A DNA stretch of 64,000 nucleotides from Calditrichia bacterium (GCA_050633245.1 JBOEGD010000024.1:96001-160000); one strand, 5' to 3'. Positions 1-55,260 are shown, counted from the stretch's first letter. Notes: generated by a model not told the origin, from the sequence alone. Translations and numbers: made by a program.

Positions 1-3000
1 GCTGCCGCAAGTGTATCGCTATCCAGACGCCATGTATTTTGCAGAAGTAGCTCAACGCGAACCATTAAGGCTTTCGGTTTCGATTCTAAATTTTTGTGCT
101 GTGTAAGCAGGGTGCAAAATGAACTATACAGATCGATTGTGCGATTAATTGTATTTTCGCTTGCAGGCTGCTCTTCTTCAGTGTCTGTCGACTTGATATC
201 TGAAGCGAACCAGGTACGCAGCTGTTCGGCACTACCAAGACTGCGATACGCTTGATGGAGCGGCTGTAGAGTTAATTCGCGCAGCGCCTCTTCAACACTT
301 GGAACTCCCCTGCCGTTTAGATAATCCGTTAATCGCGCGCACTGCTTCGTTTCATCGTCCCGGAGTTCCCGGACTTCCGGATAAACGTGATACTCATATC
401 CTTTTAGCTCAATGAGCAGTCCGCGATCGAGCAGTTCCTGACTCCGATAAATTGTCTCCAGCCCTTTAACGCTATCGCGCAGAATACAAAATCTATCGGG
501 ACCACCTTCTAGCGTTAGTCCCTGCCCGAGCGTTTTTTGGGTAAGTGTTTTAGTGCCGCTTTTGTCGAGAAAGGCCGCGGAGGTGCGAATCCAGCCAACG
601 GTTGGCTCATAGGCATTGTTAAAAACAACTAAGCTGCGCTCGGTGCCGGAACGGTTGGTGTAAGCGAATACATTCTCATTCACGCGTCCATCTGACTGGT
701 AGAAATCATAGAGCAGGAAGTTCTCCACTTCCGCAAACAGATAGCGTTTCTTCATAATGGGAAAAATTTCGCGTTCATGTCGTTTTACCAAATACTCATT
801 TGGTTTCTCATCGAAATAGGCACGCTGATACTCCATGCCGTATTTCTCTTTGAAGCCTTCAACTTGTCCGTGGCCAAACATTGGCAGGCCCGGCATTGTG
901 CACATCAGCATGCAAATGCCAAAATACTTATCGCCATCACCAAATTGATCAATTGCGGTTTCTTCATCCGGGTTGCTCATGAAGTTCACGTAGCGCTTTA
1001 ATATTTCCGGATCAAACTCCAGTGTATTCTTAATGGTGTAGCGATATTTTTTGTTCTCTTCCTTCATTAGCATATGCATGAAAGCGCTATTGTAAACGCG
1101 ATGCATACCCAATGTGCGAACGAAATATCCCTCCATCATCCAAAACGCCTCGGCTAAAAGCAGCGTTTCCGGGGCTTCTTCTGCGACGCGATCGACAACT
1201 TCTCGCCAAAACTCCTGCGGAATAAGGGCATTAAATTGTGCGCGGGTAAGGCCGTGCTCTGCTCGGGAGGGAATATCGCCTCCGCTGCCGGGTTCCGGAA
1301 ACCAAAGCCTGTGGAAGTGCTTTTTGGCAAGCGTCATGGCGGCATCAAAACGAATTACCGGGAATTTTTTTGCAACGGAAAGAATCGTTTGAATGGCAGC
1401 TTCCCGCACCTCCGGGTTTAAGTAGTTTAGCTGAGCAGTATCATTCCACGGCATACTGGTACCGTCGTTACCATGATAGATATAGCGCGTTTCGCCAGTC
1501 GAATGATCTACGCGTTTAAACACGACTGAAGCATCTGTGCGGTCGTAATAGTGATCCTCTAAAAAAATGCCGACATTGGGATCTGTAGAAAGATCTTTGC
1601 CGTTGAAAGTATACGCCGGAAATGGGGGATAGGGGGACTGTACAAACCAGTCTGGATGTTCGTGAATCCACTTTGAATCAACTCCGGTATGGTTTGGAAC
1701 CATGTCGCTGCCGAGACGAATGCCGCGTTTCCAACAGCGTTCTTTTAGATCTTTATAAGCAGCCTCACCGCCAAGCTGGTCGGCAATTTGATAGTCGAAT
1801 AACGAATAGGCTGATGATGCCGCGTCAGGATTTCCGCAAAGATGTTTAATCTCACGTGATGCCGTGCTGCGTTCCCAAATGCCGATTAGCCAGAGTCCGG
1901 TAAATCCCCATTGAGATAGCTTGTCGAGCTCCTCGTCCGGAATCTGATCGAGAGTCTTTACCTCAAGATCATACGCTCTGCCAAGCTGATCCAGCCATAC
2001 CAGCGTGCTTTTTGCCATTAGAACCAGCTGTGGCATCCAGTGTAAGTCCATGCTGAATTGCTCGACCTCTTCATCCTGTCCCCAAAAATCCGGAACATGG
2101 GTTGGTGCAGGGCCAAGGCCGGGATTAAAGCGTACTTTTGTTTCTTCTGTAATAAAATCTATGTTGCGTAATACCCGGGTCTCATAGGTTGTCGGTGGTG
2201 CTCCCCATTTAGTGATGAACTCTTTACCAAGTCGAGACTCCCAATCTATTTGCAGGTCGGATTTCAAAAATGCCGGCCACTCTGCTCGCATAAAGTTGAG
2301 TTGATCTATCAAAGAATGTGGGTTCTGTTTAGCCGGATTTAGAAGCATTTGGAAAAGGCTTATGCCACTTCCTTCTTCACCAAAAAGCGGTTGATCATCG
2401 AAGAATACTTCAAGCTGCCCCATTGCCTGAAGATAGGCCGTCTCTTCGCGCAAGCTATTGTCATCAAAAAGCTCTTGATACTTTGTAAAAGCCGGGTTGG
2501 CATTGGTAATCCATAGGAGAAGCATTTCTTCAAGAGCAACTTGCCGATTAGAGCGTTCTGCTGTTTTGCCCGCGAGGTAAGTTTCGAGAGTGATGGTACC
2601 GCGATAAACCGGAAGTGGCGGGAATTCCTCAAGGAAGCGGTTTAGCATGGTGTTGATCTCCGCATCCCCAAAACGATTGCCCAGCCATTCAAGAGCCTCG
2701 TCGAATACATTGCTGTTTTTCTCTTCACGATACTGCATCAGCATTTTGTGCAGGATCTCGTGAATCAAACCCATTGCGTTAATCTCGGCGGCACTAATGG
2801 CCTGTTCAGGGAAATTCAGTAAATCCCGCTGTTCATTCATTTTTTGAGCGAATAGTCGAGCGGCATGAAAATTGGCGAAAATGACATTGCCGGAAATCGA
2901 AAACATACTGAGGTCGAATTGATACCGATCGCGTGCACTGCGCGACACGTGAAACTCTAATCGATCTGATGAAAAGGAGTGCTGTAATTTGTGGTCGGTT

Positions 3001-3032
3001 TTATTGATTCCGGAACAGGAAAATTCTATCAT
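1..3032 (-). CDS. Large alpha-amylase family (GH13) glycoside hydrolase; 3' end runs off the window
   Basis: Absent from the ORF track because no stop falls in the window. Manual translation from ATG 3032 gives MIEFSCSG...LEFHVSRSARDRYQFD; the same frame carries GH13-type motifs FPVIRFDAAMTLAKKHF (nucleophile region), LLAEAFWMMEG (acid/base) and VNFMSNPDEE. Confidence 0.85.
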   Translation of the reverse strand, partial: MIEFSCSGINKTDHKLQHSFSSDRLEFHVSRSARDRYQFDLSMFSISGNVIFANFHAARLFAQKMNEQRDLLNFPEQAISAAEINAMGLIHEILHKMLMQYREEKNSNVFDEALEWLGNRFGDAEINTMLNRFLEEFPPLPVYRGTITLETYLAGKTAERSNRQVALEEMLLLWITNANPAFTKYQELFDDNSLREETAYLQAMGQLEVFFDDQPLFGEEGSGISLFQMLLNPAKQNPHSLIDQLNFMRAEWPAFLKSDLQIDWESRLGKEFITKWGAPPTTYETRVLRNIDFITEETKVRFNPGLGPAPTHVPDFWGQDEEVEQFSMDLHWMPQLVLMAKSTLVWLDQLGRAYDLEVKTLDQIPDEELDKLSQWGFTGLWLIGIWERSTASREIKHLCGNPDAASSAYSLFDYQIADQLGGEAAYKDLKERCWKRGIRLGSDMVPNHTGVDSKWIHEHPDWFVQSPYPPFPAYTFNGKDLSTDPNVGIFLEDHYYDRTDASVVFKRVDHSTGETRYIYHGNDGTSMPWNDTAQLNYLNPEVREAAIQTILSVAKKFPVIRFDAAMTLAKKHFHRLWFPEPGSGGDIPSRAEHGLTRAQFNALIPQEFWREVVDRVAEEAPETLLLAEAFWMMEGYFVRTLGMHRVYNSAFMHMLMKEENKKYRYTIKNTLEFDPEILKRYVNFMSNPDEETAIDQFGDGDKYFGICMLMCTMPGLPMFGHGQVEGFKEKYGMEYQRAYFDEKPNEYLVKRHEREIFPIMKKRYLFAEVENFLLYDFYQSDGRVNENVFAYTNRSGTERSLVVFNNAYEPTVGWIRTSAAFLDKSGTKTLTQKTLGQGLTLEGGPDRFCILRDSVKGLETIYRSQELLDRGLLIELKGYEYHVYPEVRELRDDETKQCARLTDYLNGRGVPSVEEALRELTLQPLHQAYRSLGSAEQLRTWFASDIKSTDTEEEQPASENTINRTIDLYSSFCTLLTQHKNLESKPKALMVRVELLLQNTWRLDSDTLAA

Positions 3033-3165
3033 AGTGCCTTCGAACTCAATCATTATATGTCGATTCATGGGATGTAAGGGTGCACGAAGTTATCAACAGC
3101 AACCCGATCATACAAGCAAAATTAGGCAATGCGTTCATTAAAAATGGTTAGTGGATTAGAAAAAC

Positions 3166-3194
3166 TTGACATTCTAAAGCCAGTTTTGTATGTT
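3166..3194 (+). promoter_or_regulatory. Sigma70-type promoter of the aromatic amino acid operon
   Basis: TTGACA (3166-3171), 17-nt spacer, TATGTT (3189-3194), just upstream of the leader peptide. Confidence 0.7.
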
Positions 3195-3222
3195 TTGCAA
3201 AACATTACAGGAATACAGAAGC

Positions 3223-3288
3223 ATGAAACGTTACAGCCACCTATTTTTCTTTTTTGGTTATTACTACTGGCCTAAATCCGGGACCTGA
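3223..3288 (+). CDS. Attenuator leader peptide (pheL-like), 21 aa, MKRYSHLFFFFGYYYWPKSGT
   Basis: ATG 3223 to TGA 3288, AGGA upstream; 9 of 21 codons are Phe/Tyr/Trp; directly upstream of a terminator and pheA. Confidence 0.88.
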   Translation: MKRYSHLFFFFGYYYWPKSGT

Positions 3289-3333
3289 GCGGCTGTATAT
3301 TTAAAAAGACATATACTTAGATAATAATCGCAT

Positions 3334-3365
3334 AAAGGTTCTGAATATTCAGGACCTTTTTTTTT
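3334..3365 (+). terminator. Attenuator (intrinsic terminator) hairpin
   Basis: AAAGGTTCTGAAT/ATTCAGGACCTTT inverted repeat (one G-U pair) running into a T9 tract, 20 nt before the pheA ATG. Confidence 0.85.
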
Positions 3366-3384
3366 GCCTAAAAATGGAGCAGTA

Positions 3385-4233
3385 ATGAACGTAGCTATTC
3401 AGGGGGGAAGGGCGTCTTTCCACGATATGGCAGCGAGAAAATACTTCGCAGGAGAAACTCTGGAGCTGTTGGAATGTGCATCGTTCAGGGAGCTGTGTCG
3501 GGCAGTAGTGAAAGACCGGGTAGATTTTGCACTGATGGCAATTGAAAATACGCTTGTTGGAAGCATTTTACCGAACTATTCGTTGTTGAGGGAATACCCG
3601 CTTTCAATTCAGGGTGAGGTTTATTTACCAATCAGCCATCATTTAATGGCTCTTCCCGGGCAACGTTTTACGGAAATAAAAAGTGTGCGTTCGCATCCGA
3701 TGGCCCTGCTGCAATGTAGTGAGTTTTTGGATCGATATCCGCAAATACACATTGTCGAGGGAAGCGATACCGCAGATAGTGCACGCGATATTCGTGAGAA
3801 CAGTCTATCCGGCGTGGCTGCGATTGCCAGCCGCTTGGCTGCTGAAACGTATGAGCTGGATGTGCTTGCAGATCATATTGAAAACCTCCAGCACAATTAT
3901 ACCCGTTTTCTGATTCTTTCTGCCAGCAATATCCAAAACTCACATGGTAATAAGGCCGCACTTAACTTTCGAGTCGATCATTCAACCGGCTCATTAGTAA
4001 AAGCACTGGGAGTTATGAGCGCGCATGAAATTAATCTTACACAGATTCAGTCTATTGCCCTACCAGACCACCCCCATGAATATGCTTTCCATGTTGATGT
4101 AGAATGGGACACGGCCGCTGATTTTGAAAAGGCGATGCAGGAAATGCAGAAATATACCCGACGTTTAACTATTCTGGGTAGATACAGCAAAGGAGAGCGG
4201 CCTTATGATCGTACCACCAGCCAGCCGACTTGA
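3385..4233 (+). CDS. pheA: Prephenate dehydratase with C-terminal ACT domain
   Basis: AIQGGRASFH, AIENTLVG, SHPMALLQC, NYTRFL motifs; start set at ATG 3385 after GGAG. Confidence 0.93.
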   Translation: MNVAIQGGRASFHDMAARKYFAGETLELLECASFRELCRAVVKDRVDFALMAIENTLVGSILPNYSLLREYPLSIQGEVYLPISHHLMALPGQRFTEIKSVRSHPMALLQCSEFLDRYPQIHIVEGSDTADSARDIRENSLSGVAAIASRLAAETYELDVLADHIENLQHNYTRFLILSASNIQNSHGNKAALNFRVDHSTGSLVKALGVMSAHEINLTQIQSIALPDHPHEYAFHVDVEWDTAADFEKAMQEMQKYTRRLTILGRYSKGERPYDRTTSQPT

Positions 4234-5353
4234 TGTTGTGGAGGAATATTACTTTGCGCATAAACTTAGAGAAGTGCGTGCGCTTATAGCTGCCGGGAAT
4301 GATGTGGTAAATCTTGGAATTGGTAATCCTGACCTGCCGCCGGCAGAAGATGTTGTTTCGCGCTTGCAAAAGGAAGCGAAGCGTACCGATGTGCATGGAT
4401 ATCAGCCGTATATGGGCATCGCTTCGCTGCGTGCTTCGATGGCAGGATATTATCAGAATACTTATGGTGTTACGCTCGATCCGGAGTTGGAGATTTTACC
4501 GTTAATGGGATCGAAAGAGGGCATCTTCCATTTGTCGATGGCTTTTCTAAATCCCGGTGATCACGTACTGGTGCCGAATCCGGGTTATTTGGGTTATACG
4601 GCGGCAAGCCGCTTGGCAGGCGCGACAACGCGCTTGTATAATCTTACCGCTGATAAGAAGTGGCTGCCTGACTTTGCTGCTCTTGAGGCGGCTGATTTGT
4701 CCGGCGTGAAAATGATGTGGATAAACTATCCGCACATGCCAACTGGTGCAACTGCCAGTCGAGAGTTTTTTCAGCAGGTGAGTCGATTTGGTGAGCGTCA
4801 CAGCATTTTAATCTGCCATGATAACCCTTATTCGCGAATAGATAATGCCGAACCTCTGAGTATTTTTAATGGTGGTAGCAAGGAATGTTGTATTGAACTG
4901 AACTCTCTTAGTAAGAGCCATAATATGGCCGGATGGAGAATCGGTATGTTGATTGGAGCCACTGAATACTTACAGACGGCACTTGCTGTTAAAAGTAATC
5001 TGGATTCAGGAATGTTTCAACCCATCCAGCAGGCAGCGTCGGAAGCCCTGGCCTTACAGAGCAACTGGTTGAATAAACAATCGGAGATTTATCGACGTCG
5101 TAAGCAGTTGGCGTATCACTTGCTTGATGCACTTGGATGTTCCTATGTGAAGGATACTGCCGGAATGTTTGTTTGGGCGCAGGTAGCAAATAGCGTTGAA
5201 AATGTAGAAACCTTTGTCGACAGGCTGTTGTTTGAAAAGCATGTATTTATTGCGCCGGGATTTATTTTCGGTAGCAATGGAATGCGCTACGTTCGCATTT
5301 CTGTATGTGCACCGGAAGAGCGGATTCAGGAAGCAATTAATCGTTTAAACTAA
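4205..5353 (+). CDS. PLP-dependent aminotransferase class I/II (probable aromatic/prephenate aminotransferase)
   Basis: NLGIGNPD, GSKEGI, NYPHMPTG, DNPY, SLSKSHNMAGWRIG (PLP lysine); overlaps the pheA end. Confidence 0.9.
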   Translation: MIVPPASRLDVVEEYYFAHKLREVRALIAAGNDVVNLGIGNPDLPPAEDVVSRLQKEAKRTDVHGYQPYMGIASLRASMAGYYQNTYGVTLDPELEILPLMGSKEGIFHLSMAFLNPGDHVLVPNPGYLGYTAASRLAGATTRLYNLTADKKWLPDFAALEAADLSGVKMMWINYPHMPTGATASREFFQQVSRFGERHSILICHDNPYSRIDNAEPLSIFNGGSKECCIELNSLSKSHNMAGWRIGMLIGATEYLQTALAVKSNLDSGMFQPIQQAASEALALQSNWLNKQSEIYRRRKQLAYHLLDALGCSYVKDTAGMFVWAQVANSVENVETFVDRLLFEKHVFIAPGFIFGSNGMRYVRISVCAPEERIQEAINRLN

Positions 5354-5370
5354 TATATCTGAGGTGTACT

Positions 5371-6480
5371 ATGAGTATTGGAAAGCTTAATCTTGAACTG
5401 CCGGAATGGATGCCATCTGATCGCCCGTTACTAATCTCCGGCCCATGTAGTGCTGAAACCGAAGAGCAGGTTCTGGAAACAGCCCGAGCTTTGAAGGAAG
5501 TCGGAAATGTAGACCTGTTTCGTGCTGGAATCTGGAAACCACGAACCCGTCCAAATACATTTGCCGGCGTTGGTATTAAAGGACTTGGCTGGCTGCAGAA
5601 AGTAAAAAAGGAAACAGGGTTACGCACAGCAGTTGAAATTGCTAATGCGAATCATGCTTATGAGGCGCTGAAGCATGGGATCGATGTGCTGTGGATTGGG
5701 GCTAGAACGACGGTAAGTCCATTCGCCGTGCAGGAAATAGCGGATGCCTTAAAGGGAGCGGATGTCCCGGTATTGGTAAAGAACCCAATTAATCCTGATC
5801 TCCAGCTATGGATCGGTGCCTTAGAACGCCTGAACCAGGCTGGAATTACCAAGCTTGCTGCAATCCATCGGGGTTTTTCCTCGAGCGTTACTGCTCCATA
5901 TCGCAATACTCCCAAGTGGCGCATTCCAATTGAACTAAAACGTCTGATCCCGGAAATTCCGATGATCTGCGATCCCAGTCATATTGCGGGAAAACGCGAG
6001 TTTCTGGAGCCGCTTTCTCAGCGCGCTTTGGACCTGGCTATGCAGGGTCTTATGATTGAGACGCATCCCGATCCGGCAAATGCGCTCAGTGATTCTGCAC
6101 AGCAAATCCGACCATCGGAGCTGCCCACCCTTATGGAGAATTTGACGTATCGCAAGCCATCCGGAGATGAAAAGCAACAGGCGAATATGCTGGAGGTCTT
6201 GCGAGGTGAAATTGACAACCTCGATCAACAGCTTTTGGATGTTTTGGCACGCCGTTCTCAAATTTCAACTCGCATTGGTGAGTACAAAGATGAAAATAAT
6301 ATGACAATTTTTCAGGTCCGTCGCTGGGAGAAAGTGCTCGGTAGCCGTTTAGATGACGCTACGAACATGGGTGTTGAGGAAAGATTTGTTAAAGAAATCT
6401 TCCAGATTATTCACCACCATTCCATCGAGCTTCAGGAAAAGGTAATGAACCAAAAAAAGACGAAAAAGCCGGTATCTTAA
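5371..6480 (+). CDS. Bifunctional DAHP synthase (type I-beta) / chorismate mutase
   Basis: GPCSAE, RAGIWKPRTRP, WIGART, DPSH motifs; C-terminal AroQ-like LRGEIDNLDQQLLDVLARR. Confidence 0.93.
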   Translation: MSIGKLNLELPEWMPSDRPLLISGPCSAETEEQVLETARALKEVGNVDLFRAGIWKPRTRPNTFAGVGIKGLGWLQKVKKETGLRTAVEIANANHAYEALKHGIDVLWIGARTTVSPFAVQEIADALKGADVPVLVKNPINPDLQLWIGALERLNQAGITKLAAIHRGFSSSVTAPYRNTPKWRIPIELKRLIPEIPMICDPSHIAGKREFLEPLSQRALDLAMQGLMIETHPDPANALSDSAQQIRPSELPTLMENLTYRKPSGDEKQQANMLEVLRGEIDNLDQQLLDVLARRSQISTRIGEYKDENNMTIFQVRRWEKVLGSRLDDATNMGVEERFVKEIFQIIHHHSIELQEKVMNQKKTKKPVS

Positions 6481-8518: not shown

Positions 8519-9484
8519 TCAGCGTATCAGTATTAACTTGCGGTTAAATTGTGCCTTGTCTGTCTGAAGCCGATAGAAATAGATGCCACTTGCCAGATTG
8601 ACTCCAATAGCATTTTTTCCGTCCCAACGAAAGCAATAGCTACCCGGTTCAAGCTCTTTGTCCACAAGAGTCTTTACGGGTTTTCCTACGATATTGAAGA
8701 TTTCTAATCTTACATTCGATTTACTCGCCAGCTTTAGTGGAATTGAGGTGTGGGGATTGAATGGATTGGGATGGTTCTGCCCGAGAATTGATCTGCCGTC
8801 TTGTGCAACATGATTGCCAGATGCATCATTGGGTAGAACAGATAAAGAGAAGGTGTCTGAGCTTTGAACCTGGAATTCACCGTCTGTAACTGAAGCATAC
8901 CAGAGATACCTCCCGGGACGCGATGCAAACTCCGATGGAAAAAGCTCTATCCAGGTTCTTCCGATATCTTCAAACGTTAGCAGAGATTTTCCATTGTCTA
9001 TATGTAGAGAATAGAACAGCTCTTGTTGGTCTACATCTTTTGCTTCATCCCAGGAAAAGCGCAGCGGCACATCGGTACTTGTTACACTGTCTTCATCGGC
9101 AGGAGTAAGTAGAACAAATGGATGTGGCGAGTCGTTAATGGGGGCAATCTTTACCCAGATCGATAAACTGTCTACTATAGTAGAGCCAAGGTGGGCCGAG
9201 ACATTGATAAACGTGTCCCCATTAGAATCAGGGACAGAATGGAAAAAAAGTTTGCGGGAATCTACCTGGGCGGTGAGCTTCGATGTTGATGTCGCCCGAA
9301 GTTGATATTTGCCCTCAGGATCGTAAAATACGGTATCTAAAGAGGCAATAAGATGCGAGCCAAAGTCTTCCTTCAGCAGTAGAAATGGCTTCTGGTGTTC
9401 AATTGTCTTGTGCTGTGCCAACAAGACATTGCATGAAACAGAGATTAAGAGCAGCAGTACAAAATAGTGGATGTTCCGATCCAT
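8519..9484 (-). CDS. Secreted protein with FlgD-Ig / T9SS type-A-like C-terminal sorting domain
   Basis: Signal peptide; QNHPNPFNP...WDGKN...SGIYFYRL...KLILIR C-terminus. Confidence 0.8.
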   Translation of the reverse strand: MDRNIHYFVLLLLISVSCNVLLAQHKTIEHQKPFLLLKEDFGSHLIASLDTVFYDPEGKYQLRATSTSKLTAQVDSRKLFFHSVPDSNGDTFINVSAHLGSTIVDSLSIWVKIAPINDSPHPFVLLTPADEDSVTSTDVPLRFSWDEAKDVDQQELFYSLHIDNGKSLLTFEDIGRTWIELFPSEFASRPGRYLWYASVTDGEFQVQSSDTFSLSVLPNDASGNHVAQDGRSILGQNHPNPFNPHTSIPLKLASKSNVRLEIFNIVGKPVKTLVDKELEPGSYCFRWDGKNAIGVNLASGIYFYRLQTDKAQFNRKLILIR

Positions 9485-10568: not shown

Positions 10569-10953
10569 ATAATTCTCCGATAGGCAAAGTAAATGTGGGT
10601 TTTCTTCTAAACGAATTGCAGGCAGTAAGGTTCCTGCTTGTGATTCTAAACCCAGCATCATTTTTGTCGACGATTGTGGGATGTGCCATGCAGCCCTAAT
10701 TTATGCATTTACTGGACTGATATCACTGTAGTTGTGGTGAAAAAATATTTATGCCGTTTTGTAGTTTCTGTTAATTAAGTGTTTCCGTTTTTAGTGTTTT
10801 TAATTAATAATTAAATTTAATTTGCATTTTGAGTTAATTAATTTAAATTTACACTTGATTTCTGCACCTGCTGTTGAAAAACCGGGTGCTTTCAATAAGA
10901 TTTCTACGTTTTCAGATAGAATTATTAACCATACATACCAGGAGGTTATAGCA

Positions 10954-12372
10954 ATGGCAAAGTCAATTGCCGATGTTTTAAAGCTTGCGAAGGAAAAGAA
11001 TGCCAAGATTATTGATGTTAAATTCATGGACTTTATTGGAACCTGGCAGCATTTCTCCGCGCCGGTTTCTCAATTGGATGAAGGCACGTTTGAAGAAGGT
11101 TTCGGTTTCGATGGATCCAGTATTCGTGGTTGGAAGGCAATAAACGAAAGCGATATGGTCGTTATTCCGGATCCTGCAACTGCTGCTATCGATCCATTCA
11201 TGACACCAACAACGCTTAGCCTTATTGGAAATATCTACGATCCGTTAACCAAGGAATCGTATTCCCGTTGCCCACGTTCGATTGCACAAAAAGCTGAGGC
11301 ATATCTCAACTCGACCGGTCTTGCAGACACTGCTTTCTTCGGCCCGGAAGCTGAGTTCTTTATTTTTGATGATGTTCGTTACGATCAAACCAGTAATTCT
11401 GGATTTTATAAGGTAGACTCTGTTGAGGGTGCCTGGAATACCGGACGCGATGAAGGCCCAAACCTGGGATACAAGCCGCGTCACAAGGAAGGTTATTTCC
11501 CGCTACCGCCGGTCGACCGTTCTCATGACCTGCGTTCCGAGATGGTCATGGTTATGGATGCTATGGGACTTGAAGTTGAAGCACACCACCATGAAGTTGC
11601 TACTGGTGGACAAGCTGAAATCGATCTTAAGTACGGTCCGCTATTGAATACTGCTGATCGCATGATGTGGTATAAGTATATTGTGAAGAACGTAGCATTT
11701 AGGAATGGAAAATCGGTAACGTTTATGCCGAAGCCACTATATGGCGACAACGGCTCAGGAATGCATTGCCATATGAGTCTGTGGAGAGATGGAAATCCAC
11801 TTTTTGCCGGTTCCAAATACGCTGGCCTTTCCGAGATGGCGCTGTATTTCATCGGTGGAATCCTGCGGCATGCCAAAGCATTAATAGCCCTCACCAATCC
11901 GACTACAAATTCGTTTAAACGTTTGGTGCCGGGATATGAGGCTCCGGTAAACCTGGCGTATTCACAGAGTAATCGAAGTGCGGCTTGCCGTATTCCGGTT
12001 TATAGCAGCAGCCCAAAGGCCAAGCGCATTGAATTCCGCTGCCCCGACCCGACCTGTAATCCTTACCTCGCATTCAGTGCAATGTTAATGGCCGGGCTTG
12101 ATGGCATTCAGAACAAGATCCATCCAGGCGAGCCGCTGGACAAGGATATTTACGATCTCTCACCAGAGGAGTTGGCCGAAGTGCCGTCAACACCAGCTTC
12201 TTTGGCCGATGCGATGGACGCACTTGAGAAAAACCACGACTTCTTGTTAAAAGGTGATGTGTTTACCAAGGATGTTATTGAAACGTGGATTGAATATAAG
12301 CGTGAGAACGAAGTTGATGCGCTGCGTTTACGTCCTCATCCGTATGAGTTCATGCTGTATTATGATATTTAA
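10954..12372 (+). CDS. glnA: Glutamine synthetase type I
   Basis: AGGAGG RBS before ATG 10954; FDGSSI, HHEVA, FMPKP, NGSGMH, RIEFR and adenylylation site DKDIYDL. Confidence 0.97.
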
Positions 12373-13507: not shown

Positions 13508-16500
13508 ATGACAAAAAATCGATTTACCCGCCTGACAGCTGAGCTTTGCGCCAAAACGCCCGACAATCAACGCATTGCCAAGTACCTGCAAACAATGGGA
13601 TTTGAAGACTGGCGGGCAGCCTCGGCTTCTCTAAACAGGCTTATGGCGCTGGAAACGGGACGCAGTCGGTTAAAAAAGCTGTTGCCCACGATATTGGGGC
13701 TGCTGGAAGTTTCTGCCAGTCCGGATCGATCGTTGATTAACGTGGAACATCTGCTGGGCTCTTCAAAGGAACGAAGTGCACTCTTAGAGCTGCTTCAAAA
13801 CTCTCCCCGTACGCTGGACATGCTATTTACCATTTTTGCCGGCAGCCAATTCCTAACCGATATCGTTTTTCGCAATCCCGACTATGTAAAACAACTGGCC
13901 GATGCCCGGGCACTTTCCCGCCCGAAAAGCCGCGATCAGTTCTTCCGCGAAGCCATGGCGCTTCAACAGGAAGCAACTGGCTTCCACGGCCGGCTGGATG
14001 CCCTCAGGCGATATCAACGGCAACAGCTCTGGCGGATTGGAGCCAGCGACCTTTGCAATCTATCTGCACTGCAAACCGTGACGTCCCAGCTTTCTTTCCT
14101 GGCCATGGGGCTTATTCGTGCCTGTCTGAACATTGCCTCGAATGAGGTTCAGATTCAGCCCGATGGGTTCTGTGTTCTGGCATTGGGAAAGCTTGGCGGT
14201 CGTGAACTGAACTACAGCTCCGATATTGATCTGATTTTTATTAGCACTGGTGAAAAGGAGTTTCAACGCCTTGGGCAAAAGCTTATCGAAGCGCTGAATA
14301 AATTTACCGGTGAGGGGTTTCTCTATAGAACAGATATGCGACTCCGTCCATGGGGGACAACCGGAGCGTTGGTGCCAAGTGTCGATGACAATCTGCAATA
14401 TCTGCGTGATAATGCCCGCCTTTGGGAAAAACAGGCGATGTTAAAAGCGCGAATAGTCGCAGGAGACCGCAAGCCGGGTGAGCTTTTTTATCGCGGCGTT
14501 CGTGAACTGATCTTCGATTTACCTGCAAAAGAGGTGCGTGCTTCGGTGATAGAAATGAAGGAGAAAATTGAAAAGAAGCTCAATAAAAAAGAATGGGGAG
14601 AAGTAAAAAACGGCAAAGGCTCTATTCGCGATATCGAATTCTCGGTGCAATTTTTACAGCTGCTAAATGGAGGCAACTCGGCAGACATTCGCAGTCGCAA
14701 TACGCTTGATGCGCTCGGTAGACTGGCAGCCAACAGTTATTTGTCGATGAGAGACTATCGAACTCTTTCTGAAGGCTATGTCTTTCTGCGAACGATTGAG
14801 CATCACCTGCAAATCATGCACTATCTGCAAACTCATCAACTTCCTTCCCAAAATCGCGAAATCGCATTTCTGGCGCGTCGATTAGGGTTTGAAGGCAGTG
14901 AAAGCGGGGCGCAATTTCTGGAGCGATACCGGCAACATCGCCAGGCTATACGAGAAACGTATGAGCGGCTCGTCCGGAAGGAAGGCGACACTGAGTATAT
15001 TGTCGAAGAAGATGAGGTTTTACTTACGATTGCCGACTTAAAAACGGATGATTTGCAGAATTCACTGATGTTGGAGCTCTCTGATTCCCAACCGGTAAAA
15101 GTAGACGCGCGGCTTCTTAAGGAGGGAATTTGGCAAGTGACAATTGTGGGGTACGATTACCCCGGTGAACTCTCACTGATTTGTGGTTTGCTCTCCGGCT
15201 TTGGCCTGAATATTCTGGAAGGGCGCATTCAAACTTTCGAAGATAAACAGCCGCGTCAGCCGGCACTGCGATCAATTCGCCGTCGGCGTCCAAACAGAGT
15301 CTCCGCTGCCGGCAGGAAAAAGATAGCTGACGTTTTTCTGGTAAGGCAAATGAATAGTGATGTCTCGCCCGATTGGTTGTCCTACCAAAATGAGCTATTG
15401 GAACTGGTGCAGCTGTTGCGCGAGCGTGAAACAAACAAAACGCATGGTAAGCTGGCCAGTCGTCTTGCCGCCACGCTGGAACATTCCGAGCTGCCGGATG
15501 TTCAGCAGCTACCGGTTTTTATCGGGATTGACAATGCCGCGTCTGAAAGCTTTACCGTATTACGAATAGATGCAGAAGATTCATTTGGCTTTCTCTATGA
15601 ATTGACCAACGCGCTGGCGCTGCATGGATTGAATATTTCCCGTATGCAGATTACCTCTCTCGGTAGCAGGGTTCATGACACGCTATACGTAACGGATTTG
15701 CAAAAACAAAAGCTGCTCGACCCGGTAAAGCAGCTGCAGGTGCGTGCAGTTGTGGCGCTGGTAAAGCACTTTACTCAAATGTTACCGCTTACGCCCAACC
15801 CGGAAGCTGCAATGTTGCATTTCAGAGAATTTCTTACACATTTTTTTGCGCTGCCGAATTGGCTTGCCGAATTGTCTTCTCTGGAGCGACCTGAGGTATT
15901 TGATGCGCTGATAAAATTGCTTGGCATCAGCGATTTTCTCTGGAGCGATTTTTTACGCACCCAACATGATAATCTTTTTCCGGTTGTAAGAGATATTCAG
16001 GGATTGCACCATGCCAAGTCTGCATTGGAATTGCAGGTTGAACTGGATGTATTACTGGCGGATGCAGGCACATATGCTGAAAAGCGCAGCGTGCTAAACG
16101 CCTTTAAGGATCGCGAGATGTTTCGCATTGATATGCGCTATATTCAAGGGTTTATACCTGAGTTTTGGCAGTTCTCAGAAGAATTAACGGATCTCTCCGG
16201 TGTTGTGTTATGTCGTGGATTAGACATGTGCAATGTCCATTTAACAGCGCTGCATGGAGAACCGCTAAAGGCAGACGGCGCACCTGCACGTGCCTGCGTT
16301 GTTGCGCTTGGAAAATTCGGCGGTCGGGAGTTGGGATTTGCATCGGATATCGAGTTGATGGTCGTGTATGAAGGGGATGGAGAAACCAGGGGGAACAAGG
16401 TGATTACGACGCCAGAGTATTATGACCGTTTGGTGTTGGAAATAAAGCAAACAATTAAGGCGAAACGCGAGGGGATCTTTGAAATTGATCTGCGGCTACG

Positions 16501-17143
16501 TCCTTATGGCAAAGCCGGGCGAATGGCAGTAGAGCTGCAGGAATTCAGCTCATACTTTGCTTCCGATGGTCCGGCATGGAATTATGAGCGCCAGGCTTTG
16601 GTGAAATTGCGACCGATTTGGCAGGATCAACCGGAAACGCTTTTTGATATAGCAGTTCTGGAAGCCAGGGATGAGTGCCTGTTCGTCTCTGGTGCATTCG
16701 ATATTGCAGCCATGCATGCAATTCGTGAAAAACATGTTCGCCAATTGGTCGCAGGCGGAACGTTGAACGCCAAATATAGCCCCGGCGGGCTGGTTGATGT
16801 CGAATATTTGGTGCAGGGATTGCAGATTCTGCATGGTGTTAACGAACCGGAACTACGCCATCCAAACACCGGCAAGGCAATGAAACGCCTGGCTAAATAC
16901 GGTTGTTTTACTGACGAGCAGTATGCCGGTCTCAAGGCTGCTCACACCTTCTTGAGAACATTGATAGATGCGCTTCGAATGGTGCGTGGTAACGCACGCG
17001 ACCTTACTGTTCCGTCGGTCAATACCAAGGCATATACTTTTTTAGCGCGCCGATTGAACATGGAGGAAACAGTCTTGCAGGACGATATACAGCGGCATAC
17101 TACCTGGTTAAGAGATGTGGTAAAAACGCTACTCATATCATAA
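13508..17143 (+). CDS. glnE: Glutamine synthetase adenylyltransferase/adenylyl-removing enzyme with two internal ACT domains
   Basis: Two nucleotidyltransferase motifs (LGKLGGRELNYSSDIDL...DMRLRPWG and LGKFGGRELGFASDIEL...DLRLRPYG) flanking two GlnD-like ACT segments. Confidence 0.92.
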   Translation: MTKNRFTRLTAELCAKTPDNQRIAKYLQTMGFEDWRAASASLNRLMALETGRSRLKKLLPTILGLLEVSASPDRSLINVEHLLGSSKERSALLELLQNSPRTLDMLFTIFAGSQFLTDIVFRNPDYVKQLADARALSRPKSRDQFFREAMALQQEATGFHGRLDALRRYQRQQLWRIGASDLCNLSALQTVTSQLSFLAMGLIRACLNIASNEVQIQPDGFCVLALGKLGGRELNYSSDIDLIFISTGEKEFQRLGQKLIEALNKFTGEGFLYRTDMRLRPWGTTGALVPSVDDNLQYLRDNARLWEKQAMLKARIVAGDRKPGELFYRGVRELIFDLPAKEVRASVIEMKEKIEKKLNKKEWGEVKNGKGSIRDIEFSVQFLQLLNGGNSADIRSRNTLDALGRLAANSYLSMRDYRTLSEGYVFLRTIEHHLQIMHYLQTHQLPSQNREIAFLARRLGFEGSESGAQFLERYRQHRQAIRETYERLVRKEGDTEYIVEEDEVLLTIADLKTDDLQNSLMLELSDSQPVKVDARLLKEGIWQVTIVGYDYPGELSLICGLLSGFGLNILEGRIQTFEDKQPRQPALRSIRRRRPNRVSAAGRKKIADVFLVRQMNSDVSPDWLSYQNELLELVQLLRERETNKTHGKLASRLAATLEHSELPDVQQLPVFIGIDNAASESFTVLRIDAEDSFGFLYELTNALALHGLNISRMQITSLGSRVHDTLYVTDLQKQKLLDPVKQLQVRAVVALVKHFTQMLPLTPNPEAAMLHFREFLTHFFALPNWLAELSSLERPEVFDALIKLLGISDFLWSDFLRTQHDNLFPVVRDIQGLHHAKSALELQVELDVLLADAGTYAEKRSVLNAFKDREMFRIDMRYIQGFIPEFWQFSEELTDLSGVVLCRGLDMCNVHLTALHGEPLKADGAPARACVVALGKFGGRELGFASDIELMVVYEGDGETRGNKVITTPEYYDRLVLEIKQTIKAKREGIFEIDLRLRPYGKAGRMAVELQEFSSYFASDGPAWNYERQALVKLRPIWQDQPETLFDIAVLEARDECLFVSGAFDIAAMHAIREKHVRQLVAGGTLNAKYSPGGLVDVEYLVQGLQILHGVNEPELRHPNTGKAMKRLAKYGCFTDEQYAGLKAAHTFLRTLIDALRMVRGNARDLTVPSVNTKAYTFLARRLNMEETVLQDDIQRHTTWLRDVVKTLLIS

Positions 17144-23655: not shown

Positions 23656-23706
23656 AGAGGTTTTACAAGTGCTTTTTTAAAATTACCAGGTTTGCAGGAG
23701 AACCAA

Positions 23707-24228
23707 ATGAGATCTCAATTTACTCTTAAAGTAGCAATGTATGGGTTGTTTTACTTATGTACTTGCGGAATTGCCCAGGATTCAACGTTGATCAATTTTA
23801 AGCTAAAGGACCAGTTTGATAAGAAATATACAAAGGCAACCTGGGAAGGCCAGATACTGGTCATAATTGGCAGTGATAGAGAAGGCAGCAAATATAGCAG
23901 CTCCTGGGGCAGTGCCATTTCCGATTCCATGTCAGGTGATCCCAACTATAGTAACATACAAATAGCTGGGCTGTCGGACCTTCGAGGGGTGCCGTTTTTT
24001 CTAAAAAGCTATGTCCGCGGAAAATTTCCCAAGGAGAAACATCAGTGGGTACTAATGGACTGGAAGGGTCTTTTTCCCAAAACCTACCAATTTAGGGAGA
24101 AACTGAGTAATATTCTCATTTTTGGAACAGATGGGAGACTCATTTATCAGACATCAGTAGCTGAAATGGATCTTTCAAAATTGAAAATGATAGTCAGTAT
24201 ACTTACAAATGAACTTAACCATAAATGA
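23707..24228 (+). CDS. Secreted hypothetical protein, possible thioredoxin-like fold without CxxC
   Basis: AGGAG RBS; signal peptide; FKLKDQF motif and terminal ILIFGTDGRLIY. Confidence 0.6.
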   Translation: MRSQFTLKVAMYGLFYLCTCGIAQDSTLINFKLKDQFDKKYTKATWEGQILVIIGSDREGSKYSSSWGSAISDSMSGDPNYSNIQIAGLSDLRGVPFFLKSYVRGKFPKEKHQWVLMDWKGLFPKTYQFREKLSNILIFGTDGRLIYQTSVAEMDLSKLKMIVSILTNELNHK

Positions 24229-24373
24229 TGCGAATTTCTTTGGCTTTTCCTGGTTCAATTGCCTTTGCCTAAATATGGTCTTGATAAATATTTCTTTTCT
24301 GCACAACCAAAAAGCCGTAGTTTTCTACGGCTTTTTTCTTTTAGAACATACTTTAACAAATGAGGAATACATT

Positions 24374-25138
24374 ATGCAACGTTTATCGCTGCTCCTTGCC
24401 ACCCTGGTATTAATGTTTGGGATTACGACAGTCTCGGCCCAGGATAACAAGAACCCGGCAATGGAAGGTTTTAACGCTGAAGGATCGGACGCCAAGGCAA
24501 TTGCAATTGCCGATGAGGTTGTCGCCGCACATGGTGGCCGCGCCAATTGGGACAATACCCGTTATGTCAGCTGGAAGTTTATGGGCGGGCGCATGCACGT
24601 TTGGGACAAATGGACCGGCAACATTCGTGTAGAAGGAAAGACTACTACAGTTTTAATGAATTTGCATACCATGAAAGGCAAGGCCTGGAAACAGGGCGAA
24701 GAAGTTGTGCAGCCAGACTCGCTGGAAAAGCTAATGAAGTGGGGAGAGGCCGTTTGGATTAACGACGGTTACTGGATGTTTCTACCGTTCAAGCTAAAGG
24801 ATTCTGGTGTAACGCTGAAATATCATGCCGAAGGTACAACTGCCGATGGACGAAAAGCAGACGTGCTGCAGTTGACCTTTGAAGAGGTTGGCAGAACCCC
24901 TGAAAACAAATATCTGGTCTATGTGGATGCCGAGACGCGCCTGCTGACACAGTGGGATTTCTACACCAAATTCGATGACCCGGAGCCGCGATTTACAACG
25001 CCTTGGGCAAACTGGCAGCCGTATGGTAAAATCCTTTTATCTGCAGATCGCGGTAAATACCAACACAGCAATATAAAAGTGTTCGATACGCTTCCGGAGA
25101 GTGTTTTTACAACGCCGGATGCCGTTACGCTCCCTTAA
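24374..25138 (+). CDS. Secreted hypothetical protein (DUF6503-like)
   Basis: GAGG RBS before ATG 24374; signal peptide; AHGG..NW, NDGYWMFLPFKL.D.G, TPENKY motifs. Confidence 0.7.
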   Translation: MQRLSLLLATLVLMFGITTVSAQDNKNPAMEGFNAEGSDAKAIAIADEVVAAHGGRANWDNTRYVSWKFMGGRMHVWDKWTGNIRVEGKTTTVLMNLHTMKGKAWKQGEEVVQPDSLEKLMKWGEAVWINDGYWMFLPFKLKDSGVTLKYHAEGTTADGRKADVLQLTFEEVGRTPENKYLVYVDAETRLLTQWDFYTKFDDPEPRFTTPWANWQPYGKILLSADRGKYQHSNIKVFDTLPESVFTTPDAVTLP

Positions 25139-29819: not shown

Positions 29820-31460
29820 TTAGCGAACCAGCATCATTTTACGGGTGGCGGTAAATTCATCCGCGGTAAGGCGATAAAGATAAACGCCGCTCGATACCGG
29901 ATAGCCATTGCTATCGCGACCATCCCAGCGCACGCTGTGTTCTCCAACGTCCTGAGAACCGGCAACCAGTGTTTTAACCATCTGTCCCAGTAAATTATAA
30001 ACCTGAAGAGAGACTTCTGTTTGCTGATTAAGGCGATATCGAATAACCGTCTCAGGATTAAATGGATTCGGGTAGTTCTGAGCAAGACTGTAATCTACGG
30101 GCAATAGCGGAATACCTTCACTGTGTTTGTCGGACCATTCTTTATCTCCGATTAACAGTAGTAATTCTCTACTTTCATTTGCCTGTAGCTCAACCGTAAA
30201 GCGCATCTCACCTTTACTTAAAAGAGCTTGTCTGCGCGAACGATCGAGAATGAAAATATCTGAATCCGCAGGCAGTTCACCCTCTTCGGTCAGATCTATG
30301 CTGACTGTAAGTGCTTTCGGCGGCGCCTTAAGCATCAGTTTCCAGCTGCCCTGAAACGATTGCTCAGCGCTGATCTTTTCCATGTAGTGAATGTCATTAT
30401 CCAGTATGGAGAGCTGAATATTTTCGCTGATTGCCGGTGGCTCGCGCAGCTCCGTGTCAACTCCGCTTAAATTCCAGCCAATGCGATTGTGGCTGTCGCG
30501 ATAACGCCCTTCTGCCGAAGCACTAAGGTTTAATGCGTAAACAGGTGCCTCAGTGGCGCGTTTAACGAATTCGCCTTCCCCACCTCCGCCATCTCGTGTG
30601 CGAAAGTTTAGATTAACAGCATTACCTGAATTGAATACAAAATAACCGTTCCATGGTTCCAGGGTGTCTGCAATTGTGAACTCTGTACCGTCGTAGAAAT
30701 AGGGACCTTGTAAATTGCCTTCAGAAGCTACATCAGACCATGCAAAATTAAATGCGAAGGGATTTCCAATCTGATTCCAGCCGGTTTGCAAAAATACATT
30801 TTGCGTTACAGAAGCATCAAGAGTCAGCCCCGAATCGACGTCAAAAAAACCACCGTCTTCGCTAATTAACCAGAATGCGTTGCCGGGAACAAAACGCGCC
30901 GGTATAAGTGGAAATTCCTGATAACCTGTCTGCTTTTCCTCTTGAATATTCGACCAGCGAAACAGGCGCCACTTTTCAATGTCGTACTGTCCAAGATCGT
31001 CAAACAAAACGTCCTCAATGTCTGACGAGCGCAGCTGTAAGGGAACCGAAACCATGCGATAGGTGTTTACCGGAAGTGAGATTCGATTTGTAATATAGTT
31101 GTCTGCGTTTATTCTTACAATTGCAGGGTTGTTATCGTTTGTTCCTGCCGGGACATTGATTGTATTGACGAGATCTGAAAAAGACACGAAGAACTCCAGG
31201 CCTCTTTCAGTCATAAACTCTGATGGAACTGTTGCGCGAAATGTACTTCCGGACTCAACCAGATTTACAATGGTGTAGGTCTGTTCGCCGCCCTGCCGAT
31301 AACAGATGAGGTTGAACGACCAGTCTCCGCTTGTTGGTGGCGTAATGGTAAGGGAATAGGGCTGGTTAATGCGCGGTGGATTATCTTCAATAATCGTTTG
31401 CGCAAAACTCAATTGCAAAAAGAGTAGTAAAAGAAACAATGTCGGGGCAAGTTTCATCAC
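29820..31460 (-). CDS. Secreted protein with FlgD-Ig / T9SS-like C-terminal domain
   Basis: Signal peptide; YRMVSVPL, GWNQIGNPF; LAQNYPNPFNP...SGVYLYRL...KMMLVR. Confidence 0.82.
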   Translation of the reverse strand: MMKLAPTLFLLLLFLQLSFAQTIIEDNPPRINQPYSLTITPPTSGDWSFNLICYRQGGEQTYTIVNLVESGSTFRATVPSEFMTERGLEFFVSFSDLVNTINVPAGTNDNNPAIVRINADNYITNRISLPVNTYRMVSVPLQLRSSDIEDVLFDDLGQYDIEKWRLFRWSNIQEEKQTGYQEFPLIPARFVPGNAFWLISEDGGFFDVDSGLTLDASVTQNVFLQTGWNQIGNPFAFNFAWSDVASEGNLQGPYFYDGTEFTIADTLEPWNGYFVFNSGNAVNLNFRTRDGGGGEGEFVKRATEAPVYALNLSASAEGRYRDSHNRIGWNLSGVDTELREPPAISENIQLSILDNDIHYMEKISAEQSFQGSWKLMLKAPPKALTVSIDLTEEGELPADSDIFILDRSRRQALLSKGEMRFTVELQANESRELLLLIGDKEWSDKHSEGIPLLPVDYSLAQNYPNPFNPETVIRYRLNQQTEVSLQVYNLLGQMVKTLVAGSQDVGEHSVRWDGRDSNGYPVSSGVYLYRLTADEFTATRKMMLVR

Positions 31461-34082: not shown

Positions 34083-34802
34083 TGCGCTATTTTACAATCT
34101 GTTCGTGTTGAACTGAATTTTGAGTGAATCATTCGTTTCTGCACTGCCAAATAGACATGACTTTGGTCACTCGGTATCCCTTCCAACAACCGTTTTACAG
34201 CCTTAAATCCGGCAAAATTTTCTTGCATATTTGTTGTTTTCCAAGTATACTATGCGGTGTCTTATGGCAGAAAAACAAAGCTAACTACTTAAAAAACAAC
34301 ATCAAAAGCGTTTTTTGCCTGAAGCTATACTGCGTCAAAAGGAAATAATTTTCCTACTTTCATAGGAAATTTTGATCTGAAACACATTGGCATGGCAGTA
34401 TTGTTGCGCTGGATAAGTTTATAATAAACAAGGGTTAAAGGTGTTTTTGCCTTGTTTTTAGCACGGTTTTTGTATATCAGTAGGATTATCTAACTAACTT
34501 GCGGAGAGCAATTATCGACCTGATGGATACTGTTTACTACGCATTAACAACGCAAAAAGTTGCGTTGCAATCTACCCAATCATCTTTTTTGATTCCCAAA
34601 CAGTGTGCATTGCATTCTTAAGCTGGATGCGAGTTACTAATCAATTGTTATTATTTAGAATTGATTGAAATTCATTCATGTATAAATAGAGAGACAAATT
34701 AAACAAAAACGTAAACCAGTTGAGGAGGAATCGAATGAGATAACCCCTGGCTGACGTTTGAGCCATCTAATTCACTCTAAGTATAACGGTATGGAGAAAA
34801 AA

Positions 34803-37800: not shown

Positions 37801-37832
37801 AGATTTTCTTCGGTATAAAGCTTAGCTACTAA
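34803..37832 (+). CDS. TonB-dependent transporter with N-terminal carboxypeptidase-regulatory-like domain
   Basis: GGAG RBS; GKIIG.IKD..SGDPLPGVN, IRGGR, GGFTAEFG, QDKIE, SPRLGFSFP, C-terminal PRQIFFGIKLSY. Confidence 0.93.
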   Translation: MSRKLLLLFIVLSFAPMVLFGQSTGKIIGVIKDKASGDPLPGVNIGLEGTTMGAASDADGYFVILNVPVGVYNVSASFIGYKEVTQTGLRVSASITTDVNFTMEEAAVEGEEVIIVGSRPLVEKNVTSGVSLVTSEELENIPVRGFNDIVATQKSVVVQDNLVYIRGGRADEVGYYIDGASSVNPLTNTQSIYVIREAVEEFQVLAGGFTAEFGGANAGIIRTELKTGGSNYSFSADFQTDKFADEGETFLGTNSFRHHNLILSASGPLLSNKVRFFAAFENAYQGDRAVRFGEGFTFTNLTDQNPSAVGTPETIDEYTYPDGFTPQREEEQLAFQSTLLFDLSPLQVRLSGSWSDRSRQFNSVFFQNQGGSSPDTPVLNQLNDRTYDDTFQNLLLSGKLTYVLSPTSLLEANFNYFDSKLDREDSYFGNDWRKWNDSTAVAQHTGGEVTYASRYRAQPNYLFNGIYFARNGAPTSAYRVQDQQYIGGAINFLTQAGRHHELKIGGDVRMYKLRRFAVATRAISQLDVDQTAGTIENLDPNAWVNASAVNNYGYDIFGNESDSDEFTASGFQTSQAPNEPVFGAFFIQDKIEYNDLIINAGLRLDYFDSKSRTLVDELDPAFDPVQRIFDEDAAWQDKDAAVQVSPRLGFSFPVSERTVFYANYGKFLQMPELETMYAGVHIFNDAILVGGTSNQNPVGYGLDPIKTTSYEIGFRQQLGNVAALDIGGFYRNVKGQIQVDKIFPTNSALGPFNVLTNGDFATTKGVELGITLRRVNRLQGQFNYTLSSAQGTNSTRNSDVAVLELNSTNRPSTISPLDFNQVHRGSIIMDYRWGRDEGGPLLSNLGVNGLFTFNSGHAYTYTESKVGQASAYDSGVDYMNDTRSRRALEPIGASTTPFNFNFDLQLDKAINVISSVETKLYMRVNNLFNTKNVINVFNNTGSATDDGFIQPIDQAASESRQAYVNAFGEEYINTYNAVNIDNGQAYWDVLGLQLFDSPRQIFFGIKLSY

Positions 37833-54765: not shown

Positions 54766-55260
54766 CTACGGTTTATCTGCAATCAGCACGTAGCGCCGTG
54801 CCTCGGAATAAAGCTCCTCACCCTCATCATTTAATATGCTTACCTGATAAAAATAAATACTGTTCGGAAGCGGATTATTCTGATCATCTTTACCATCCCA
54901 CTGAAGCTTATATACTCCGATTGCCTGCTTTTCGTCTACGAGTACCCGCAGTGGGTTGCCAAGAAAATTGAAAATTGTAAGCCGGACATGTGAAGGAAGC
55001 CGCAATTCGTAAACAATTGTCTGATTGGGCTCAGGGGATTCAGAGGTTTCAGGAAGAACTACCGGCGTAAATTGCAACTTTTTGGTTAACTGCTGTAGCT
55101 CTTTGTTGGCAGAATGTTTTTCGGACGCTGCAACGGTTATTGTGGAAGAGGTATCTTCTGCAACAGGTGATAGTCGCTTGCCGCTACTGCAATGACTCAA
55201 CAGTAGTGTGGCAAACACCAACATTGCTAATTTGCTGGTTATAGTAAGCAGTCGATTCAT
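54766..55260 (-). CDS. Lipoprotein with FlgD-Ig-like domain
   Basis: Lipobox LSHC; V.LTIFN.LG..LR.LVD, WDGKD, IYFYQ. Confidence 0.72.
   Translation of the reverse strand: MNRLLTITSKLAMLVFATLLLSHCSSGKRLSPVAEDTSSTITVAASEKHSANKELQQLTKKLQFTPVVLPETSESPEPNQTIVYELRLPSHVRLTIFNFLGNPLRVLVDEKQAIGVYKLQWDGKDDQNNPLPNSIYFYQVSILNDEGEELYSEARRYVLIADKP

Follow-up and report, generated by a model that had tools for sequence, protein, structure and literature searches.

A predicted leader-peptide attenuator with Phe, Tyr and Trp codons upstream of pheA in a Calditrichota-like bacterium

Upstream of pheA in the window (the whole 64-kb stretch of DNA analysed here) lies an element that is very probably a classical ribosome-mediated, leader-peptide transcription attenuator of a pheA - aminotransferase - DAHP synthase/chorismate mutase operon. 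It combines the features by which attenuators are recognized, namely clustered end-product codons in a leader, an intrinsic terminator before the first structural gene and an antiterminator that shares a strand with this terminator and can be masked; that the attenuator responds to amino acids is what we infer from the sequence. An earlier examination of the same DNA, the sequence-only reading, had proposed a ribosome-mediated attenuator, and this is supported by the recurrence of leader, terminator and antiterminator in related loci and by a match to a covariance model, R1. The element is a real but ordinary attenuator of a type common to most Bacteroidota and related phyla; it is already known in kind, and what is new is the extension to a Calditrichota-like lineage.

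The pheA locus of the window

Judged by its proteins, the window appears to come from a poorly sampled, Calditrichota-like member of the FCB group. This placement draws on its Era GTPase, whose named homologues are almost all Calditrichota (52-62% identity), on its PheA, whose named homologues are Calditrichota, Balneolales and KSB1 (identity no higher than 59%), and on sorting domains for type IX secretion. Genes for proteins with C-terminal FlgD-Ig and/or Por_Secre_tail (type IX secretion) domains lie at 8519-9484, 29820-31460 and 59578-60783, and also at 54766-55260, while TonB-dependent receptors with CarboxypepD_reg domains are encoded at 34758-37832 and 61917-63998, a combination consistent with an FCB-group organism. 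Elsewhere in the window, genes for a glutamine synthetase and a 1211-aa GlnE-like adenylyltransferase adjoin (10822-12372 and 13508-17143), the latter also matching GlnD_UR_UTase and ACT domains, which is an unusual domain mix. The genes that concern us are as follows.

3-3068, minus strand: alpha-amylase-family gene, divergent from the pheA operon
3069-3384: intergenic region between the divergent alpha-amylase-family gene and the plus-strand operon
3385-4233, plus strand: pheA, prephenate dehydratase without a chorismate mutase domain (Pfam PF00800, E 3.8e-57)
4205-5353, plus strand: class I/II aminotransferase (Pfam PF00155)
5371-6480, plus strand: DAHP synthase-chorismate mutase (CM_2) fusion, last gene of the operon (PF00793 and PF01817)
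50833-51588, minus strand: gene for a 251-aa prephenate-dehydrogenase-like protein with PDH_N only, 44 kb distant from the pheA operon

The sequence-only reading was right to include DAHP synthase in the operon and wrong to assign chorismate mutase to PheA, the CM_2 domain being fused to the DAHP synthase instead. The prephenate-dehydrogenase-like gene is divergent from a Ser/Thr kinase-TPR gene (51775-54762), and no aromatic leader was seen in its upstream region. G+C content dips to 0.39 in 3001-3500, compared to 0.46-0.49 in the flanks. The pheA gene begins with ATG at 3385, preceded by GGAG at 3375-3378, and the following elements lie ahead of it, all on the plus strand.

3166-3171, plus strand: -35 hexamer TTGACA (promoter scan)
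3189-3194, plus strand: -10 hexamer TATGTT (promoter scan, 17-nt spacer)
3223-3288, plus strand: leader ORF of 21 codons and TGA, translating to MKRYSHLFFFFGYYYWPKSGT (ATG 3223, TGA 3286-3288)
3232-3238, plus strand: segment 1 (TACAGCC), 5' strand of a predicted anti-antiterminator or pause helix
3244-3255, plus strand: four Phe sensor codons, TTT TTC TTT TTT (sequence, translation)
3259-3267, plus strand: three Tyr sensor codons, TAT TAC TAC (sequence, translation)
3268-3270, plus strand: single Trp codon, TGG, the last aromatic codon of the leader (translation)
3279-3286, plus strand: antiterminator 5' arm CGGGACCT, running from the final leader codons into the first base of TGA (fold)
3289-3331, plus strand: inner part of the antiterminator, GCGG 3289-3292 with TCGC 3328-3331 plus an A/U-rich hairpin (fold of 3270-3345)
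3291-3297, plus strand: segment 2 (GGCTGTA), partner of segment 1, overlapping the inner antiterminator helix
3334-3359, plus strand: terminator hairpin, 11 bp with loop AUAU (terminator scan, -13.2 kcal/mol)
3357-3365, plus strand: run of nine T, the first three within the terminator stem (sequence)

Promoter, leader and terminator were all found where the sequence-only reading had put them. The promoter agrees with the consensus at 10 of 12 positions and ranks first among five promoter-like sites in 2900-3600 (shuffle mean 2.0), and transcription would start near 3201, about 20 nt before the leader ATG. Among the 21 leader codons are 4 Phe, 4 Tyr and 1 Trp, with eight aromatics falling in one stretch of ten residues. 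When both strands of the window were scanned for short ORFs (ATG start, 6-45 codons, at least six aromatic residues in any ten), the leader was the sole hit, and its aromatic score of 8 compares to 5 for the next best of 554 window tiles. An in-frame ATG at 3190 was rejected as the leader start; it falls within the -10 hexamer and so would not be transcribed. The Shine-Dalgarno-like element of the leader is weak (AGGA 3209-3212, 10 nt upstream of the ATG), and the leader is presumably translated.

The terminator, predicted by the sequence-only reading to lie ~20 nt before pheA, is the only terminator-like site in 2900-3600, with 19 nt between its U-run and the pheA ATG. Its 5' arm AGGTTCTG (3336-3343) is common to terminator and antiterminator. 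The end of the leader had been proposed to mimic the 3' arm of the terminator, and this is what we observed: CGGGACCT is one base away from the 3' arm CAGGACCT (3350-3357) and pairs with AGGTTCTG over 8 bp, including two G-U pairs. Folding of 3270-3345 yields the antiterminator helix together with its inner helix, at -17.7 kcal/mol and a z of -2.48, a stability that 4 of 200 shuffles equal, and the arm at 3279-3286 is the best complement to the terminator 5' arm (-11.9 kcal/mol, z -3.1, p 0.01). Folding of the full leader instead gives, as its minimum-energy structure, the terminator plus the helix between segments 1 and 2 that the sequence-only reading had also described, although the stability of the region as a whole is unremarkable (z -1.10; 26 of 200 shuffles fold as well). 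On these predicted structures, terminator and antiterminator are mutually exclusive in the window.

Recurrence of the element in related pheA loci

We collected 80 related loci from reference genomes via PheA homologues, comprising one from KSB1, one from Calditrichaceae, one from Melioribacteraceae, two from unclassified 'bacterium' MAGs and 75 from Bacteroidota. The set contained neither the genome of the window nor its two closest relatives (PheA 78% and 76% identical), the best PheA identity to the window within the set being 54%; the PheA alignment held 45 sequences, the window's own among them. Most relatives have an aminotransferase gene after pheA and keep a DAHP synthase/chorismate mutase gene downstream of it, and a leader followed by this same set of genes is the arrangement in most of them, as in the window.

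The sequence-only reading had suggested a search for conserved F/Y/W-rich uORFs upstream of pheA in related genomes. An aromatic-rich short ORF within ~250 nt upstream of pheA was present in 69 of the 75 loci for which 300 nt or more upstream were available, compared to 48 of 2361 control tiles from the same loci (2.0%), making such ORFs about 45 times commoner upstream of pheA than in controls. Raising the threshold to seven aromatics in ten left 63/75 upstream regions and 11/2361 control tiles. From these counts, together with the antiterminator and covariance-model results given below, we judge that the arrangement upstream of pheA is not due to chance. As for the misses, L001 has a homologous leader with four Phe, the leaders of L038 and L070 start with GTG, and L003, a Calditrichaceae MAG, has a terminator and only a weak candidate leader, with one Tyr and two Phe; a perfect TTGACA-17-TATAAT promoter also lies upstream of pheA in L003, before position 4001. 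In L042 the leader lies 3.7 kb upstream and heads a rearranged operon; in this locus, from Echinicola shivajiensis, pheA has no leader of its own, and an F/Y leader with terminator (279-374) precedes the DAHP synthase/chorismate mutase gene. No leader was found in the inspected region upstream of pheA in L080, from the cockroach endosymbiont Blattabacterium cuenoti, which appears to have lost it.

The promoters of the window's nearest relatives are likewise of sigma-70 type and lie at the equivalent place before the leader. TTGAC(A/T) is invariant at this place in the alignment of the window's relatives L001, L002 and L004, with sigma-70-like pairs 47 and 52 nt upstream of the leader ATG in L001 and L004. 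The motif TAnnTTTG, a mark of the Bacteroidota promoter type, occurs no more than 90 nt upstream in 28 of 69 Bacteroidota leaders.

A terminator lies between leader and pheA in 72 of the 73 loci with a called leader, as well as in the window; that of L002 has an interrupted T-run, was missed by the scan and was recognized by eye. Across an alignment of 68 family sequences the terminator is 96.3% paired, with changes on both sides at 8 of 8 pairs, a result matched by none of 500 shuffles.

We assessed the antiterminator locus by locus and free of alignment, taking the best complement to the terminator 5' arm between leader start and terminator and comparing it to 200 shuffles. This complement beats 95% of shuffles in 56 of 73 cases (mean z -2.9), and the arm sits close to the leader stop (median -12 to -2; 5th-95th percentile -24 to +13). 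Two loci, L070 (wrong ORF picked) and L079 (poor hairpin), were retained in this 73-case test and excluded from the statistics on 71 leaders. Within those 71, measured from where the last sensor codon begins, the antiterminator arm lies 13 nt downstream in the median (interquartile range 11-14), a spacing that fits the leading edge of a stalled ribosome. The window follows this ruler, its arm lying 10-11 nt from the Trp codon and 14 nt from the last Tyr codon.

Counting in fixed columns of a MAFFT alignment gave a weak and noisy signal for the antiterminator, owing to shifts in arm register between lineages. By this count the helix is 66.0% paired compared to 63.2% in shuffles, both-side changes occur at only 3 pairs (reached by 483 of 500 shuffles), and covariation scores 0.222 where shuffles score 0.196, with 7 of 500 shuffles attaining the observed value. 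A single pair shows clear compensation, with 27 G-C and 25 A-U. Pairing of segments 1 and 2 reaches -17.6 kcal/mol (p 0.0) in L001 and -18.2 (p 0.015) in L004, a strong helix in both; it is significant in only 31% of the 71 loci. RNAalifold, run on the window with L001, L002 and L004, returned the equivalent of this helix alone, at -3.5 kcal/mol with a covariation term of 0 and with the terminators misaligned.

In Chitinophaga and Hymenobacter, F/Y(W) leaders stand in tandem before pheA. Those at L013 3651-3710, L018 3677-3736, L019 3655-3714, L022 3664-3726 and L055 3640-3705 each lie ~320-360 nt before pheA, and each tandem leader is followed by its own hairpin and T-run, which looks like a duplicated, serial attenuator.

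Finally, covariance model R1 was built from 68 relatives with the window left out, and its top match in the 64-kb window is the element itself, at full length (3221-3366, 40.6 bits, E 2.9e-5). By this measure the window element resembles the pheA leader elements of Bacteroidota and allied FCB-group phyla. A weak second match at 24216-24342 on the plus strand (23.3 bits, E 0.043) consists mainly of a strong hairpin with T-run near 24311-24342, where ORF 23692-24228 meets ORF 24209-25138, suggesting that the latter ORF may start later than listed. Rfam recognized no family at gathering score in the window, nor in 8 related loci, and a search of 3050-3450 at E of 10 or below gave nothing relevant, with Phe_leader, ctRNA, AbsR25 and mir-2 at chance level. 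We rejected Phe_leader (RF01859) as an assignment, its 21.2 bits comparing to a gathering score of 55 (E 0.33) and the terminator part alone aligning, and likewise a T-box leader or any other Rfam cis-regulatory family, no curated model having matched at gathering score. For Bacteroid-trp (RF01692), neither the gathering nor the permissive threshold brought a match in the window. Rfam is thus without a family for the pheA leader element, whose F/Y-rich leader, terminator and antiterminator arm at the leader end recur upstream of pheA across several FCB-group phyla.

Ribosome position, sensed amino acids and competing explanations

To relate ribosome position to RNA structure, we modelled the nascent RNA just before the terminator 3' arm emerges and allowed folding only downstream of the ribosome's leading edge. 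The antiterminator pairs permitted in this occupancy model depend on the codon in the A site.

Any Phe codon or Tyr 13-14: all 8 pairs of the antiterminator possible
Tyr 15: 6-8 of 8 pairs possible
Trp 16: only 3-7 of 8 pairs possible
Pro 17: 0-4 of 8 pairs possible
Lys 18 to stop: 0 of 8 pairs possible

In the mechanism we propose, the 21 leader codons would be translated while RNA polymerase transcribes the next ~80 nt, and the outcome would be set by the supply of charged tRNA. With plentiful Phe-tRNA and Tyr-tRNA, the ribosome would reach the stop codon (3286-3288) and mask the antiterminator arm at 3279-3286, leaving the terminator 5' arm free, such that the hairpin at 3334-3359 would form and the transcript be released at the U-run before pheA. 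With scarce Phe-tRNA or Tyr-tRNA, the ribosome would stall at Phe codons 8-11 or Tyr codons 13-15, still 11-35 nt short of that arm, which could then pair with 3336-3343 as soon as this is made, preventing the terminator and allowing the operon to be transcribed. A stall on the single Trp codon would leave the antiterminator arm half-covered, as the sequence-only reading had anticipated, and Trp would therefore contribute weakly at best. When no ribosome translates the leader, pairing of 3232-3238 with 3291-3297 probably provides a pause or anti-antiterminator helix.

Equilibrium folding of the full transcript favoured the terminator wherever the ribosome was placed, in a calculation where the ribosome was represented by a masked footprint that let a helix close around it. 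With the terminator always the equilibrium winner, the switch must be kinetic, as in classical attenuators. Ribosome-free nascent RNA ending at 3344-3349 adopts the antiterminator rather than the helix between segments 1 and 2, from which untranslated transcripts might read through.

Phe and Tyr are the probable signals, as the sequence-only reading also had it; this rests on codon counts and on operon enzymes that serve both amino acids. The 71 leaders hold 357 Phe, 229 Tyr and 33 Trp sensor codons. Every one has at least two Phe codons, 69 have at least two Tyr codons inside the cluster, and Trp occurs exactly once in 33 and more than once in none. Tyr makes up 14.1% of leader residues, several times the typical proteome value. 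DAHP synthase, chorismate mutase and the aminotransferase are common to Phe and Tyr, and the operon of L011 (Lutimonas vermicola) also holds a prephenate dehydrogenase, which fits the Tyr codons. In the occupancy model, Trp would be at most a weak, marginal third input.

Could the same attenuator in effect sense Phe alone, as E. coli pheL does, with Tyr and Trp codons that are tolerated as filler and cause no regulatory stalls? Phe is the commonest sensor codon, the first gene encodes the Phe-specific prephenate dehydratase, and the window's operon is without a prephenate dehydrogenase, the related gene lying at 50833-51588. We nevertheless regard this as improbable: two or more Tyr codons are retained in the cluster of nearly all leaders, the Tyr content is high, the operon encodes steps common to both amino acids and includes prephenate dehydrogenase in L011, and the three Tyr codons of the window lie at a distance that still permits the antiterminator in the occupancy model.

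An action of the leader ORF on translation, by coupling, re-initiation or access to the pheA ribosome-binding site, has a precedent in that leader genes near structural genes have been proposed to boost translation by re-initiation in many phyla including Bacteroidetes, in the passage concerned of PMC4833913. We consider it very unlikely here, given the 96 nt that separate the leader stop from the pheA ATG, the position of the pheA GGAG outside every predicted helix and the canonical hairpin with U-run that stands between leader and gene in the window and 72 relatives. Least credible, to the point that we set it aside, is that the short ORF either arose by chance or encodes a hydrophobic micro-protein with a function of its own, next to a hairpin that serves independently of it as terminator or insulator; the peptide is hydrophobic and annotation often misses small proteins, but what is conserved is composition (F/Y runs) and RNA complementarity rather than residue position, the C-terminal part of the peptide changes together with the terminator sequence, such ORFs are strongly enriched upstream of pheA, and the upstream gene at 3-3068 is divergent, so the hairpin cannot be its terminator.

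Relation to known attenuators and significance

The closest known counterpart is in Flavobacterium psychrophilum, where a mapped structured 5' region carries the annotation of a leader-peptide attenuation element for pheA (Guerin et al. 2021, PMC9723704), which lends the attenuator reading independent support from the transcriptome of a relative. As presented there, it resembles the window element in standing upstream of a pheA-aminotransferase operon, in a leader that mixes F, Y and one W (27 aa compared to 21 aa in the window), in a leader ORF end that resembles the terminator 3' arm and is followed by terminator and U-run, and in having no Rfam match (PMC9723704). Our literature search found no fuller account of the pheA leader element than the passage in that paper, and no paper joining Calditrichota with leader-peptide attenuation. 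The sequence-only reading was aware of no description in this lineage; the element has been described in a related phylum. Leaders clearly related to the window's occur in Flavobacterium loci L052, L059, L063-L066, L071, L074 and L077, and R1, built from such loci, finds the window element. Several features nonetheless set the window apart from Flavobacteriaceae. It belongs to a Calditrichota-like lineage outside Bacteroidota, has a sigma-70-type promoter and GGAG before pheA, arranges its sensor codons in separate blocks (FFFF-G-YYY-W) whereas F and Y are interleaved in the Flavobacteriaceae leader as published, lacks prephenate dehydrogenase in the operon, and has the extra helix between segments 1 and 2, common only to its nearest relatives.

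The pheL leader contains Phe codons only, and its pheA encodes a chorismate mutase-prephenate dehydratase fusion. Compared to pheL-pheA, the window leader adds Tyr and Trp codons and the window operon includes DAHP synthase. What the two share, according to the excerpted description of the E. coli and gamma-proteobacterial pheL-pheA attenuator (Rfam Phe_leader RF01859), is a short leader with a Phe run, alternative hairpins and an intrinsic terminator before pheA (PMC3082878). Comparative genomics has also revealed aromatic-pathway uORFs elsewhere: uORFs mixing F and Y adjoin shikimate genes in other bacteria (PMC6429828, Fig. 6b), and uORFC-13-1 is a Phe uORF upstream of aroF in Acholeplasma (PMC8632094). 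In the descriptions that these two papers give, leader codons match products of the shikimate pathway and a terminator is adjacent, as in the window; phyla and genes are others, and the likeness is one of description alone. Bacteroid-trp (RF01692), listed among cis-regulatory elements in Table 1 of PMC2864571, is on that listing also a cis-regulatory leader of an aromatic (Trp) operon in the neighbouring phylum Bacteroidetes. It differs from the window element in operon and in family. Attenuators in Bacteroidetes/Chlorobi were reportedly predicted by Vitreschak and colleagues (FEMS Microbiol Lett, 2004).

On balance, we lean somewhat toward a joint reading in which the window element belongs to one ancient, uncurated family of Phe and Tyr (sometimes Trp) attenuators inherited across the FCB superphylum, spanning Bacteroidota, Ignavibacteriota (Melioribacteraceae), KSB1 and Calditrichota-like lineages, with a fixed ~13-nt ruler that survived changes of promoter and RBS and with graded read-through in the window, where the FFFF-YYY-W order and the ruler would give full read-through for Phe and Tyr and partial read-through for Trp.

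The understanding of attenuation itself is unchanged by this finding. With no Rfam family for the class, our alignment and R1 could seed one, and the tight sensor-codon spacing together with the tandem leaders of Chitinophaga and Hymenobacter offers a convenient natural series for attenuator tuning. Reports of the pheA leader in Flavobacterium understate its spread by far, since it was found at nearly every related locus examined and in several phyla. In an uncultured and poorly sampled lineage, the operon for aromatic amino acids gains a confident regulatory annotation.
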